Positions 54,784-59,163 of a stretch of 64,000 bases of DNA are shown piece after piece; within the stretch, counting starts at the first letter, position 1, and each line of letters starts with the position of its first letter. Source of the stretch: Candidatus Nomurabacteria bacterium (GTDB taxonomy: Bacteria; Patescibacteriota; Saccharimonadia; Saccharimonadales; VXPC01); assembly GCA_020631905.1 (NCBI GenBank), contig JACKGQ010000001.1:165854-229853 (forward strand), in the 5' to 3' direction. The notes beneath the pieces were generated by a model. That model saw only the letters and a program-made list of their open reading frames with translations, was not told the DNA's origin and ran no database searches. The translations under genes and the position numbers were made by a program.

Positions 54784-55206
54784 TTAGTTGGGGTGTCGGC
54801 GGACATACACCCCCAGTGCAAGCACAAGTAGGAACACCAGCCAGCAGATACCGACGATGCCGAAGGCGATCTCGCGGGCGTCTTGGCTCGGCCAGTATTC
54901 GGTCGGCCAGGCAAGCCTTGAGACCCAGAGTGAGCCAGCGGTTCCCCACAGCGATAGCCACACCCCCAGCCAGAGCTTCTCTTGCGGGCTAATCACCACG
55001 ATCAGCCCCAGCAGGGCCATGCCGGCAGGCATGACGCTCGCCAAAATGATCATCCATTCGGGAGTACCTGCAATGTGCTTGGCGATGACAATACCCCCGA
55101 CCAAGTTGGCTGCGACAATCATCAGACCGCACAGACCAACCAGGAACCACCAATTACGCCTGGTGCTGGCGGTAGTCGACGGACGTGGACTGCTGAATGC
55201 GTGCAT
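54784..55206 (-). CDS. GC-rich orphan membrane protein (about 140 aa, 4 predicted TM helices), cargo b
   Basis: Start moved to MHAFSSPRPSTTAS... (purine-rich GAGAGAAGGTG upstream). Helices WWFLVGLCGLMIVAANLVGGIVIA, MIILASVMPAGMALLGLIVVI, LWLGVWLSLWGTAGSLWV and IAFGIVGICWLVFLLVLALGVYV. Confidence 0.6.
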   Translation of the reverse strand: MHAFSSPRPSTTASTRRNWWFLVGLCGLMIVAANLVGGIVIAKHIAGTPEWMIILASVMPAGMALLGLIVVISPQEKLWLGVWLSLWGTAGSLWVSRLAWPTEYWPSQDAREIAFGIVGICWLVFLLVLALGVYVRRHPN

Positions 55207-55293
55207 CACACACCTTCTCTCACCGTTGTGCCGAACCGCCTGTTGCGATTCTCTGTTAACACAGCTCTTGCGAGATACCAGCTGTATGCCCAT

Positions 55294-55398
55294 CTACCTC
55301 TAGTAGCTCACAAGAGTACATTATCATAACATAATTACAAAATATGTCTACCCCCTCAGTCTATTATCTATGTCCGCGGTAGGACCAAGGGTGTATAT
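55294..55398 (-). promoter_or_regulatory. AT-rich promoter-like spacer of cargo b, related to the spacer upstream of cargo f
   Basis: Reverse strand GACATATTTTGTAATTATGTTATGATAATGTACTCTTGTGAGCTACTAG, versus 62774-62703 GACATATTCTTAAGATAATGATATAATAATGCGAGTTCGAGTGAGCTAGTTC. Shared parts are GACATATT, an ATAATG -10-like box and GTGAGCTA. Confidence 0.45.
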
Positions 55399-55458
55399 AA
55401 CGAGAAAACCCCGAGCCCTGCGAGAGGAACTCGGGGTTCCTCGATCGAGGGGACGGGG
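55399..55458 (-). terminator. T element copy 3
   Basis: Identical 60 nt, directly after the TAA of ORF 55459-55932. Confidence 0.8.
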
Positions 55459-55932
55459 TTAATCACTTTTGGGTGGGGTGAAGGCTCGACTCAGCGCATA
55501 GCCACCAATGGCAATTTCCGTACGCGAAACCTCACGGATTCCCCAGCGAGTCACCTTGCCAAGCGGGTCGATTTCGCTACCCCGCCAGTTGACCAGCCGA
55601 ACTTCCACCGAAATGCGCAGTGGTTTGGATGGCGGTTCAACCTTGTTCATGATACGTGCCAGCGCTTCGAGTTTTCGGGCGATCTGATCTGCGTAGTTGG
55701 CGTAGATGTCGTGACCCAACTCGAGCACCACCCAGACATCGGGCATACCCGAAGCGCGGACCACTTCTGCCATCACAACGCCGACTTCATACTGCCTCAA
55801 CGCTGGAATACCCTCGATGCCAGCCGTTGCATCGGCGACCAAGGCTGCGCCCCGATCAAACAGGTTGTTGGCTAGTCCTGCGACATTACCAATTGCCCAA
55901 CGCTCATAGCTGATTGTCAAACAAACGGGCAT
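55459..55932 (-). CDS. GC-rich orphan protein (157 aa, soluble), cargo c
   Basis: Start moved to MPVCLTISYERW... The track ORF has an AT-rich N-terminal extension to 56013. No recognised domain. Confidence 0.55.
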   Translation of the reverse strand: MPVCLTISYERWAIGNVAGLANNLFDRGAALVADATAGIEGIPALRQYEVGVVMAEVVRASGMPDVWVVLELGHDIYANYADQIARKLEALARIMNKVEPPSKPLRISVEVRLVNWRGSEIDPLGKVTRWGIREVSRTEIAIGGYALSRAFTPPKSD

Positions 55933-56471: not shown

Positions 56472-56770
56472 CGGTAGCCTCCCCTGGTTGCTCTTCTTCT
56501 GTGTTCCTGGATGAAACACAGAACTAAGCAACCGACTAAACTTAGAGTGTCAAGATTGATATATCCAGGTTGTAAAAATACGAAAAAACCGGCTTTCGGT
56601 GTTTAAGCGAATGTGCCGGTTTATTTACAGATCTTTTTCTAAACTAACAACACACTTCGCTTAAGCGAGAATCACGAGGCTGAGGCCGAGTGTTCGTGTT
56701 GTCATTGCTAATTAAGATACCTCTAAGTTTTTTTCGTGTCAACTCGGCTATGCAAAGTCAATAAATGTTG

Positions 56771-56798
56771 AAGCCCCGGGGACGAATCCCCGGGGCTT
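56771..56798 (-). terminator. Intrinsic terminator of the TPM-domain gene
   Basis: AAGCCCCGGGG-ATTCGT-CCCCGGGGCTT (reverse strand) followed by CAACATTTATT. Unrelated in sequence to the T element. Confidence 0.7.
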
Positions 56799-56835
56799 GT
56801 AACGGCATATCTAGGTGACCGTCGCACCTTGCTTC

Positions 56836-59163
56836 TTACCAGCCAGAGCGTCCTCCCCCGGTATGGTGACTTCCGCCCCCGAAGGAGCTGAAGCTCGAAC
56901 GCCCGCCTCCAGTCGAGAAACCGCTGGAACCGAACGATGTACGTGAGCCACCGGTGGAAAAGCCACCTGTGCCGAAGCTCGAACGACTCGAATAGCTCGG
57001 TCGACGCGCTTCGACAGCGGCGCTCACGTCACCCTTACACTTCTTGTGCAGCCCCTCGAGCGCCTGCTCGTACAACTGCCACAAGACGATCCGCTCAGCC
57101 ACGCTCAGTTCTGAGCCGATGTGATGATCGGAGCTCAGTTGCTCGAGGTCCCTCAGACGCTTGCTCTTGATGTCGCCCTTGTGGTCCTGGATGTACTTAC
57201 CCAGATCCTTCTCGGCTTCACGAGCTTCACGTTCGGCGTCTGCCAGCCGCGCACGCTCCGCTTCCGCGGATTCGTACTCTTCACTGGCTTCATCCTGCTC
57301 TTGGGAAATCGAGTCGATGAGCTTCTCGAGCTGATCGACAATGCTCAGGTATTCCGGGTGCTTCTGGGTCCCCAGGTGCAAACGGATGTCCGCAATCTGC
57401 GCACCAATCTGTCTCAGGGCCTCGAGTTCGTCGGTGCCAACGTCTTTACGATGGTCGTTGCAGAATCGAATTGCCCGCTCACACCTGCGTCGTGCATCCT
57501 CGACCAGCGTGCCGGTCTTGCTTCGCATGCGCTTGAGCTGTCCGTTCAGACCAGAAACCTCATGGTAGAGAGCTTCCGCCTGAGTGAGCATCGTGTCAAC
57601 CTCATCGATGGATTTCTGCGCACCGATGTAGTCCTGGACTGCCCTGCTCGCGAGTACTCTGATCGCCGGGATGTCGACCTCACACTCATCCAACAAGGCG
57701 TCGGCCTCGGAACCGAAGTTCTCAATGCTGACCAAGCTGGCAAGTCCGAACTCGTCCAGCATCTGGCCGTAGAGGGCCTCTGCCTGGGCCTGTACTGCAC
57801 GCAAACCCTTGAGACGCTCGTCGAGCGTCGCCGTGGTCGCGAGCAACGTGCTACCCAGGGTGGGCAACGCCTCAACTTCGGCCTCGAGCGCCTCCGCCTC
57901 AGCGGCGAACTGATCGAGTAGTTCTTGGCCAGCCTTGAAACGAGCATCGACAAGGCAACCCTCCGAAGAGAGAAGCAACTTTTCGAGCTTGGCAACATCA
58001 GCGTCGAAGTGCCCCGTCTTCCAACCTTGCTCACGCAGATTGGCAAGCGCCAGTGCAATAGCAGCGTGGCATTGGCGCGCCTTGGCGCCCCGTTCACTAC
58101 TGGTCGTGATCAGCTCCGAATACTTCGCTACCGCTTTGACAAATTCGTCGTATACGGCGTTGAACGAGTCTACGTCTGCCTCGAACTTCTTGGCGTCGGA
58201 CTCGAGCTTCTCCCAGCCCAACGTGGTTGTGGGGTTGGGAGTCCTCGTGAGTGTCAGATGTTGCTGTGAGATTGCCGCCAGTCGCTGTCCGAGCATCTGC
58301 TTCGTGTTGAGAAATGAGCGCGTTTCGCTCTCATTACCCAAGGCGACCGAAGCAGTCACACGATTCAGCATCGTTTCGTAGTTGCCCTCGAGGATGATTT
58401 GCCCGCTTACGGCGGTTGCTCGTGCAACCACTGCTTCGGCCGAGCTCTTCGCCATCTCATACTTCTGGCGCCGGCGACGACGCTCTTCGAGGTAACCACT
58501 GAGTCCCGTGATTCCAAAGAACAGCAGTACGAAGAACACGATACCAGCCAGCACCCAGAGGAACACTCCCCAGGGTACGTCTACCGGCTTGTTCTGCGTG
58601 CTGGTCGTCTGGTTGCTTGCTACGCCGCCACCCGTATTCGTATTGGGTTGTGTCAGCGGTGCCGTCAACAATTCGGTGTAGGCCTTCATGCCCTCCTTGA
58701 GCGCAAACGTCACGCCATTGCCAGCCGCGAGGTTATCGCGAATGACATTGTTGCGAACATCCGCCTCCTTCTGTTGCGTGATCCGCACCGTCAAACCGGT
58801 TCCGACGTAGGTGTCGACGATCCGGTCATCCATTGCGATCACGATGATCAGCTGACGTGGTGCCAAACCGGTGTCGGTCGAGGCGTCATACCACGACGGG
58901 CACTCTGCGAGAGCCGACTTGAGCCACTGCTCGTGGCTCTGCCCCGAGACGCTGTTGATGACCACGGCATGAACCGCGACATCTTGCGCTTCGAGATCTG
59001 AGACTGCCCGAGTCAGGCCTTCATCGGTCGTCGAGACCGAATCATTACCGGCATATATCGGCACATCGCAGTAACCGGCAGCATTTGCCGGACTGCCTGG
59101 GGGTGCAAGCATCCCCAGGGTCGCGACCATTGCGGTCGCCACGATCACCAGAGCACGACGCAT
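56836..59163 (-). CDS. GC-rich TPM-domain membrane protein with long coiled-coil region and Gly/Ser-rich tail, cargo e
   Basis: Signal peptide MRRALVIVATAMVATLGMLAPPGSPANA. N-terminal TPM/phosphatase-like domain (VAVHAVVINSV...LIIVIAMDDRIVDTYVG), one TM helix (VFLWVLAGIVFFVLLFFGI), about 480 aa of heptad-like A/E/L/R-rich sequence, and the tail GGFSTGGSRTSFGSSGFSTGGGRSSF...GGGRSGW. Start at ATG 59163 after AGGTG. Confidence 0.7.
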   Translation of the reverse strand: MRRALVIVATAMVATLGMLAPPGSPANAAGYCDVPIYAGNDSVSTTDEGLTRAVSDLEAQDVAVHAVVINSVSGQSHEQWLKSALAECPSWYDASTDTGLAPRQLIIVIAMDDRIVDTYVGTGLTVRITQQKEADVRNNVIRDNLAAGNGVTFALKEGMKAYTELLTAPLTQPNTNTGGGVASNQTTSTQNKPVDVPWGVFLWVLAGIVFFVLLFFGITGLSGYLEERRRRRQKYEMAKSSAEAVVARATAVSGQIILEGNYETMLNRVTASVALGNESETRSFLNTKQMLGQRLAAISQQHLTLTRTPNPTTTLGWEKLESDAKKFEADVDSFNAVYDEFVKAVAKYSELITTSSERGAKARQCHAAIALALANLREQGWKTGHFDADVAKLEKLLLSSEGCLVDARFKAGQELLDQFAAEAEALEAEVEALPTLGSTLLATTATLDERLKGLRAVQAQAEALYGQMLDEFGLASLVSIENFGSEADALLDECEVDIPAIRVLASRAVQDYIGAQKSIDEVDTMLTQAEALYHEVSGLNGQLKRMRSKTGTLVEDARRRCERAIRFCNDHRKDVGTDELEALRQIGAQIADIRLHLGTQKHPEYLSIVDQLEKLIDSISQEQDEASEEYESAEAERARLADAEREAREAEKDLGKYIQDHKGDIKSKRLRDLEQLSSDHHIGSELSVAERIVLWQLYEQALEGLHKKCKGDVSAAVEARRPSYSSRSSFGTGGFSTGGSRTSFGSSGFSTGGGRSSFSSFGGGSHHTGGGRSGW

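Follow-up and report, generated by a model that had tools for sequence, protein, structure and literature searches.

A G+C-rich accessory segment beside valS in a Saccharimonadales-type genome is dominated by a YdjH/YgcG-like gene whose family exceeds its hosts in G+C content

We analysed a 64,000-nucleotide stretch (the window) of contig JACKGQ010000001.1, deposited under Candidatus Nomurabacteria bacterium, in which five G+C-rich genes at 54784-59163, between an ATPase gene and valS, had been read as recently acquired actinobacterial DNA. The island itself is real. Over 54700-59200 the G+C content (GC) rises to 0.55-0.61, compared with 0.40 in the left flank (54400-54699) and 0.37 in the right flank (59200-59499), and with 0.38-0.52 elsewhere in the window (1-kb steps). 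This confirms the abrupt shift described in the sequence-only reading. The long open reading frames (ORFs) in shadow frames, for example 57121-57921(+) with 266 amino acids and 58399-59001(+) with 200, and the AT-richer spacers at 55294-55398, 56532-56760 and 59164-59460 were also found as claimed. Four of the five reverse-strand genes were substantiated, namely o169, o184, o102 and TPM778 (Table 1), the last of which makes up 53% of the island; a fifth would be a 49-amino-acid ORF at 56043-56192. High GC is not confined to these bounds either. Two further ORFs of the same kind lie outside them: o98, to the left of the ATPase gene, and o70, between tsaD and valS.

The inserted unit is larger than the G+C-rich core. 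We took 80 valS loci from species-representative genomes and compared the window proteins with them by tblastn. In at least 13 of the 80 loci, tsaD and valS are followed by a convergent HTH-HAD gene that ends approximately 10-30 nt after valS (tail-to-tail examples are L002, L004, L006, L008, L009, L017, L025, L035, L036 and L038). Between the same two genes the window has 6.8 kb (52620-59460), which hold o98, an AAA_14/DUF4143 ATPase gene, o169, o184, o102 and TPM778. The segment at 52620-59460 is a real, lineage-specific insertion relative to related Saccharibacteria. The claim that this DNA is extra relative to related genomes therefore stands, while its bounds have to be widened to include an ATPase gene of host-like composition. 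The relatives compared are distant: the window ValS is 40-66% identical to ValS from metagenome-assembled genomes (MAGs) labelled Saccharibacteria. At that distance the segment is absent from the same site in related genomes, and no relative of an island protein was found near valS in any of the 80 loci. The spacer between tsaD and valS is likewise extended, measuring 773 nt in the window, where it holds o70, as against approximately 30-80 nt in L004, L008 and L017. Therefore, o70 and the repeat copy C that accompanies it are also an insertion.

Overall, the segment resembles a classical horizontally acquired genomic island in its deviant composition and in being inserted relative to related genomes. 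It differs from one in lacking an integrase, a transposase, a tRNA-linked att site and an identifiable donor, and in that the deviation of its main gene is a family trait, as shown below. No integrase or transposase domain was found in or beside the segment by a Pfam scan of the ORFs at 45-64 kb of the window. A tRNA- or att-flanked structure was not found; the only tRNA genes of the window lie at 47-48 kb. The direct repeats of the segment are its terminator and hairpin modules. Elsewhere, the window carries genes for type IV secretion system pilins (PF18895).

Table 1. Features of the inserted segment and its surroundings, with positions in the window (GC3, G+C content at third codon positions)
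Feature	Position	Strand	GC	GC3	Basis or remark
Whole extra segment	52620..59460	.			Relative to the conserved valS/HTH-HAD tail-to-tail junction; tblastn on 80 valS loci
TPM778, 775 amino acids from ATG at 59163, NCBI KDA23_02250	56836..59163	-	0.589	0.689	TPM_phosphatase
o102, small ORF, 82 amino acids in the Logan gene call	56223..56531	-	0.570	0.60	Weakest coding pattern of the set
o184, orphan ORF, annotated with 157 amino acids, H6798_01215	55459..56013	-	0.548	0.56	Promoter-like site 56021-55994
o169, four hydrophobic helices (by eye, from the translation)	54784..55293	-	0.586	0.70
o98, G+C-rich ORF left of the ATPase gene	52976..53272	-	0.596	0.677
AAA_14/DUF4143 ATPase gene, host-like composition	53388..54497	+	0.483		Pfam 2.3e-28, 1.2e-27
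o70, short G+C-rich ORF between tsaD and valS (hydrophobic by eye)	62490..62702	-	0.549	0.72
Promoter-like site of o70	62774-62746	-			11/12 positions, with TG
Terminator-like stem copy A, starts at o98 stop codon	52908..52982	-			Repeat family D1; terminator scan
Terminator-like stem copy B, starts at o169 stop codon	54716..54790	-			Repeat comparison; terminator scan
Terminator-like stem copy D, starts at o184 stop codon, followed by no long hairpin	55391..55465	-			Repeats; terminator scan
Terminator-like stem copy C, diverged, starts 3 nt after o70 stop codon	62418..62492	-			Repeats; terminator scan
Long hairpin copy A, abuts 3' end of HTH-HAD gene	52725..52847	-			Fold z = -8.3; covariance model 119 bits
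Long hairpin copy B	54579..54700	-			Fold z = -8.1; covariance model 126 bits
Long hairpin copy C, between o70 and valS	62128..62248	-			Fold z = -5.9; covariance model 110 bits
Terminator-like site in the AT-rich spacer between valS and TPM778	59244..59263	-			Terminator scan
valS, core gene, right flank	59461..62001	-			Pfam 1e-116

TPM778 is a YdjH/YgcG-like membrane protein of the envelope, with an extracytoplasmic TPM domain and a cytoplasmic spectrin/EzrA-like rod. From the N-terminus it consists of a signal or transmembrane helix, the TPM domain, a transmembrane helix, a helical rod of approximately 500 residues and a disordered Gly/Ser tail. Residues 49-160 match Pfam TPM_phosphatase (PF04536) with 23.3 bits against a cut-off of 22.1, and the domain was recognized in 38 of 40 aligned family members, at best with an E-value of 1.7e-16. 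In the AlphaFold model (mean predicted local distance difference test score 83.6, above 90 over residues 30-170), an N-terminal helix and an alpha/beta domain (30-167) are followed by a disordered linker and by a transmembrane helix that runs into approximately 500 residues of helical hairpins; helices cover 201-720, and the disordered Gly/Ser tail covers 724-773. Foldseek matched the head with probability 1.00 to solved TPM domains of BA41, Psb32 and TLP18.3, with 5anp, 8c7i and 3ptj among the structures, the target TM-score being 0.70-0.74 to 5anp, 3ptj and 7tbr. Part of the rod was matched to the cytoplasmic domain of EzrA (4uy3; probability 0.98, TM-score 0.69 on the target). While the two superpose, EzrA has no sequence similarity to TPM778, and it differs in domain order and from TPM778's extracytoplasmic TPM head.

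The layout of a TPM domain, a transmembrane helix and a long coiled-coil or low-complexity segment is the one by which YdjH/YgcG-type TPM proteins (PF04536, partners of PspA/IM30) are known. TPM778 is much longer than YdjH of B. subtilis. We infer that TPM778 may help to maintain the envelope, as a scaffold or chaperone anchored in the membrane. Such a role agrees with the literature on TPM partners of PspA: YdjH is described as a PspA partner in which a coiled coil or low-complexity segment comes after the TPM domain, and a chaperone-like role in membrane-linked assembly was proposed for the YdjH/PspA pairing (PMC11237479). The homologues of TPM778 mostly adjoin pspA. In 6 of 10 homologue contexts the pspA (IM30) gene is a direct neighbour, downstream in five and upstream in L089. 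By contrast, TPM778 and its nearest Saccharimonadales relative have no adjacent pspA, and no island ORF matched PspA_IM30 (PF04012) in Pfam.

An exhaustive HMMER search of 1.84 billion representative proteins (E <= 0.001) returned 191 relatives of TPM778, and most of the 150 listed align end to end over approximately 750-810 amino acids. None of them is closer than 33% identity, and the best matches are P0003 with 33% and P0004 with 32%. Word-indexed searches with the single sequence or with a 40-sequence profile gave almost nothing; they score just the 8000 candidates with the most shared words, a list that low-complexity words had probably filled. TPM778, P0003 and P0004 form a separate subfamily, scoring approximately 260-306 bits with one another and approximately 40-120 bits with the rest. 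P0003 and its cluster sit on contigs of up to 924 kb, on which the closest matches of GroEL (70%), TsaD (60.5%) and further genes are loci with a Saccharibacteria or Saccharimonadales label. The P0003 gene follows groEL and lies approximately 8.7 kb from tsaD-valS. Other family members include a protein of Sungbacteria, in the Candidate Phyla Radiation (CPR), and a JGI protein labelled "YgcG". The sole actinobacterial protein that we saw is a Corynebacterium TPM protein (P0156), which matches the family profile at E 6.5e-33 and has no pairwise similarity to TPM778; taxonomy is known for a minority of the matches.

We then compared the composition of the island with that of the window. The 32 background genes have GC of 0.39-0.53 (mean 0.466) and a mean GC3 of 0.475, and the TPM778 gene lies 4.5 standard deviations above background chunks of 2.3 kb. 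Amino-acid content does not account for its third positions: the observed GC3 is 0.69, while 0.483 is expected from the amino-acid content with background codon usage. The excess corresponds to z = 11.8 in binomial terms, where the background genes themselves vary with a standard deviation of 1.8. Therefore, the shift at synonymous sites is real. The small island ORFs are enriched in GC3 as well (z of 2.2-5.2). The 4-mer signature, corrected for base composition, gave a divided picture. TPM778 correlates with the rest of the window at r = 0.21, as against 0.68 +/- 0.10 for background chunks, while the small-ORF part of the island is host-like at 0.60. In codon usage and, for the main gene, in tetranucleotides, comparisons that the earlier analysis had asked for, the island differs from its host, as a horizontally acquired island would. 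For the main gene, however, this evidence is confounded by a family-wide offset in GC.

The gene of this family exceeded its neighbouring genes in GC in 11 of 11 genomic contexts, by 0.066-0.129 with a mean of 0.107 (sign-test p 0.0005), and exceeded the host genes in GC3 by 0.178 on average. Family gene GC follows host GC closely (Pearson r = 0.96, slope 0.90) over a host range of 0.32-0.59. The excess of TPM778 over its host is +0.123, and that of the Saccharimonadales relative is similar in kind, with 0.612 against 0.49. The excess of TPM778 is thus what the family shows everywhere, and the high GC of the main gene, as a family trait, is not a sign of recent transfer. The 4-mer signature behaves in the same way. 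That of TPM778 agrees with homologous genes of other genomes at 0.69-0.85 in 8 of 10 cases and with its own host at 0.21, so that most of what is unusual in this signature belongs to the family. GroEL and translation-factor genes of the same loci show no GC shift.

The offset extends to the usual neighbour, since the adjacent pspA gene is shifted in the same way in the contexts measured. The pspA/IM30 genes beside the TPM-family gene in L086, L088, L089, L091, L213 and L214 are enriched in GC and GC3 relative to their own genomes, with GC3 of 0.50, 0.85 and 0.95 against neighbouring-gene means of 0.22, 0.54 and 0.65 as examples. Isolated G+C-rich ORFs without Pfam domains also occur in other genomes that carry the family (L082:1883-2533(-) and 6059-6547(+), L087:8751-9548(+), L092:12420-13148(+)), with GC of 0.59-0.67 in hosts of 0.48-0.57, comparable to o70, o98 and o169. 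The family and usually its pspA neighbour stand approximately 0.11 above host GC in every genome examined. It follows from this family-wide offset that composition-based calls of foreign DNA will flag the family wrongly, and we regard this lesson in method as the useful outcome of the present case.

Taken together, we favour the following explanation, to which we give a probability of roughly 0.55. The island would be the G+C-rich part of a 6.8-kb lineage-specific accessory segment, inserted between valS and the conserved HTH-HAD gene of a Saccharimonadales-type genome. Its dominant gene encodes a YdjH/YgcG-like envelope protein with a probable scaffolding or chaperone role at the membrane. 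The other ORFs are small and without a family match, they have promoter-like sites of their own, and the same apparent intrinsic terminator closes three of them. In the main gene, high GC is a family property (approximately 0.11 above the host, and approximately 0.18 in GC3) rather than evidence of a recent arrival from elsewhere. The composition shift, the insertion, the family membership, the fold and the family-wide GC offset are shown by the data. The segment was acquired or is accessory DNA, and the original observation was real but mis-bounded. The genes of the segment more probably came from the gene pool of Saccharibacteria and the CPR than from an actinobacterial host.

Several points weigh against this explanation. 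The 11 contexts were drawn from the family as a convenience sample. The agreement of TPM778 with its host in 4-mers (0.21) is below that of every homologue-host pair (0.26-0.77). The small ORFs are GC3-enriched and belong to no family that could explain it. pspA is adjacent neither in the window nor in the Saccharimonadales relative (L082). The nearest known relative of TPM778 is 33% identical, and of the two best matches only P0003 could be placed in Saccharimonadales, P0004 lying on a contig (L087) with GC of 0.57.

The small ORFs also differ in how widely they were searched. In one deep search of 5.8 billion clusters the sole match of o184 was itself, and a collection of that size was used for o184 alone; for o98, o169, o102 and o70 the comparison extended to family libraries and to 2.3 Mb of loci retrieved here. 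No match to o98, o169, o184 or o102 was found in Pfam, NCBIfam or PHROGs, and none to o70 in NCBIfam or PHROGs (the Pfam scan left out o70). By phmmer, none of the five has a homologue in the 2.3 Mb of loci. Two of these ORFs without a family match, o169 and o70, are hydrophobic by eye, and each of the small ORFs has a promoter-like site of its own. The local promoters and terminators with which the genes were said to be fitted were found for the ORFs as promoter-like and terminator-like sites.

On the minus strand, a terminator-like stem of 63-75 nt, followed by UUUUCUCGUU, has its first base where o98, o169 and o184 end, and o70 ends 3 nt before such a stem. Copies A, B and D of the stem are 98-100% identical over 63-68 nt, and the surrounding DNA is unrelated. 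In copies A, B and C the stem is followed by a hairpin of 120-170 nt and then by a 13-bp hairpin. The long hairpins are far more stable on the minus strand than on the plus strand (-85/-63, -66/-51 and -62/-41 kcal/mol), and copies A, B and C have 8, 7 and 5 G.U pairs on the minus strand versus 0, 2 and 2 on the plus strand. Among the three copies, 18 of 43 pairs have changed on both sides. The apex is invariant, with CGAGGACUGUWUG, a small hairpin and AGUUCCGC. Across copies the conserved part is this apex of approximately 45 nt (GCGAGGACUGUUUGAG, a small hairpin, CGAGUUCCGC), and the stems vary freely yet stay complementary.

These repeats suggest an alternative in which cassette-like modules, each made of a promoter, a G+C-rich ORF, the 63-nt terminator and in three of four cases the hairpin, spread within the lineage and inserted at intergenic sites around valS, the source being a mobile element or an unsampled relative. 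The modules would be o70 with C, TPM-o102-o184 with D, o169 with B and o98 with A. We take this alternative seriously while holding it improbable. It would account for the way in which four ORFs stop at the first base of one kind of stem or 3 nt short of it, for near-identical stem copies A, B and D amid unrelated DNA, and for the second insertion of o70 with copy C in the tsaD-valS spacer. The hairpin also behaves like mobile DNA elsewhere, with several copies per contig and an in-frame position inside tsaD of L012-L014. Nevertheless, no recombinase or transposase was found in or beside the segment, and neither target-site duplications nor attC-like R/L boxes were seen by eye. No gene recurs beside the hairpin, and 46 metagenomic copies showed no association with G+C-rich upstream DNA (mean difference -0.015). 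The survey of modules, moreover, is confined to the window. So far, the pairing of the hairpin with G+C-rich ORFs is specific to this genome.

The transfer originally proposed, a recent one from a high-G+C donor such as the actinobacterial host, now appears quite unlikely. Saccharibacteria are epibionts of Actinobacteria, and a gene passed from host to epibiont in this group would be notable. The proposal draws on the enrichment of all island ORFs in GC and GC3, including those without a family match, on the insertion relative to related genomes, on the discordance of the TPM gene with its host in 4-mers, and on the match of the Corynebacterium TPM protein to the family profile. However, this Corynebacterium protein lacks pairwise similarity to TPM778, and no close homologue exists among the proteins searched. 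The closest homologue of TPM778 lies not in another phylum but in a Saccharimonadales genome, an outcome that had been named beforehand as refuting the proposal, and no close actinobacterial homologue appeared, all identities being at or below 33% and taxonomy being known for a minority of matches. o184 has no homologue at all among the 5.8 billion clusters. The GC3 values of 0.56-0.70 are well below the expectation for high-G+C actinobacterial genes. The excess of the main gene equals the family-wide offset, the small-ORF part is host-like in 4-mers, and the segment showed neither an integrase or transposase nor a tRNA target site. The present case does not show host-to-epibiont transfer.

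An assembly chimera, or contaminating DNA joined to a Saccharibacteria contig, is extremely unlikely. In its favour, composition changes abruptly at the boundaries, and an assembler could be misled by repeats of 63-68 nt. Against it, the source contig measures 770 kb, the spacers inside the island share terminator and hairpin sequences with the tsaD-valS spacer, and a 7,024-nt Logan contig of SRR12358676, present in 2 samples, is 100% identical to approximately 55432-62455 and crosses the valS/TPM boundary. Made independently from short reads, this assembly runs through valS, the TPM gene, o102 and o184, which bears on the earlier concern about chimerism. Both of its ends lie within the repeated terminator, as expected of a short-read assembler, and its coverage ends to the right of the left boundary (approximately 54500-54800).

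The hairpin occurs well beyond the window. In a distant CPR MAG, a covariance model located it 133 nt downstream of valS (L021:11191-11314(+), with a second copy at L021:1-76), and the model also located it in frame inside the tsaD ORF of L012-L014 (L012:8063-8169(+); approximately 170 nt, z = -7.6). In Saccharibacteria, tsaD has a variable in-frame insertion after the 'ANF(L/I)TE' motif that adds approximately 50-110 amino acids (L012:8030-8200 within tsaD 7641-8885). The window tsaD (62775-63950) has an insertion at the same site, with a decayed hairpin of approximately 125 nt at 63435-63559(-). These in-frame hairpins resemble the palindromic elements inside Rickettsia genes. An exact-pattern scan of metagenome contigs returned at least 120 stretches, of which a few tens could be chance by a rough estimate. 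The covariance model aligned 100 copies in the 80 loci listed (L093-L172), approximately half of them at full length (E to 1e-10) and the rest at the apex only. Stem cells are 93% paired across copies, and every standard pair type occurs at most stem positions. The contigs range in GC from 0.34 to 0.63 and sometimes carry 2-4 copies, and the gene neighbourhoods point to several phyla. The copies contain 81 G.U pairs but 29 A.C pairs (p = 7e-7), a bias that speaks for the motif strand acting as a single strand. Most copies are intergenic (84/100), and on its 3' side the hairpin more often than not meets a convergent gene by that gene's 3' end (33 versus 12).

Searches for a known counterpart of the hairpin were negative. 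The hairpin and repeats reached no Rfam family at the gathering threshold and had only chance-level matches at E up to 10. No copy of the motif turned up in IMG/VR viral contigs; the G+C-rich copy L114 has no match in plasmids or E. coli genomes; no recurrent gene stands beside the metagenome copies; and a literature search on the motif string returned nothing relevant. A T-box or other known leader upstream of valS, a riboswitch and a small RNA were ruled out for lack of an Rfam match. An integron cassette array was rejected, as the ORFs scanned with Pfam at 45-64 kb include no tyrosine recombinase and the repeats have by eye no GTTRRRY/RYYYAAC boxes. A diversity-generating retroelement and a retron were rejected as well: neither a recombinase nor a reverse transcriptase was found among those ORFs, and the anatomy of the repeats is at odds with both. 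The broken frame of copy B speaks against a small peptide encoded there, and neither a hammerhead, a group II domain V nor a K-turn fits the apex cleanly (all by eye). Rickettsia palindromic elements (RPE), enterobacterial repetitive intergenic consensus sequences (ERIC, or intergenic repeat units, IRU) and Correia elements come closest. Like them, the hairpin is an imperfect palindrome of approximately 120-170 nt, multi-copy, mostly intergenic and sometimes in frame within a gene. RPE and ERIC share a consensus along both arms; in the hairpin, by contrast, only the apex of approximately 45 nt is conserved across genomes.

One could speculate that the apex represents a structured element not described before, which would be a new type of selfish palindrome or a conserved RNA that marks or creates sites of gene addition, that the ORFs were delivered or fixed as terminator and hairpin modules, and that the YdjH-like/pspA pair is held approximately 11 GC points above its hosts by an unknown force. 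We consider this combination rather doubtful. The widespread conserved-apex hairpin without an Rfam family nevertheless deserves a study of its own, as does a 13-kb stretch of the window without coding signal.

This stretch (3700-16870, approximately 13.2 kb) contains a single ORF of at least 150 amino acids under code 11 (158 amino acids) and few under any single recoded stop, by which recoded stop codons were ruled out as the cause. Its codon periodicity is 1.15, versus 5.4-7.0 in coding parts, and it yielded no protein matches, no Rfam match and almost no repeats. A non-coding-like region of this size is very unusual for a genome of approximately 0.77 Mb. Near the right flank, the first 22 codons of the longest valS ORF (62002-62067) lie inside repeat C, and valS probably starts at the ATG at 62001 and not at 62067. 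Extended -10-like TGTTATAAT motifs were seen by eye approximately 8 nt upstream of the ATG at 62001 and again right after the terminator, and valS may be leaderless. Finally, the same contig apparently stands twice at NCBI, as Candidatus Saccharibacteria bacterium (KDA23 tags) and as Candidatus Nomurabacteria bacterium (H6798 tags), which we noticed through the proteins at 56836-59172 and 55459-56013.

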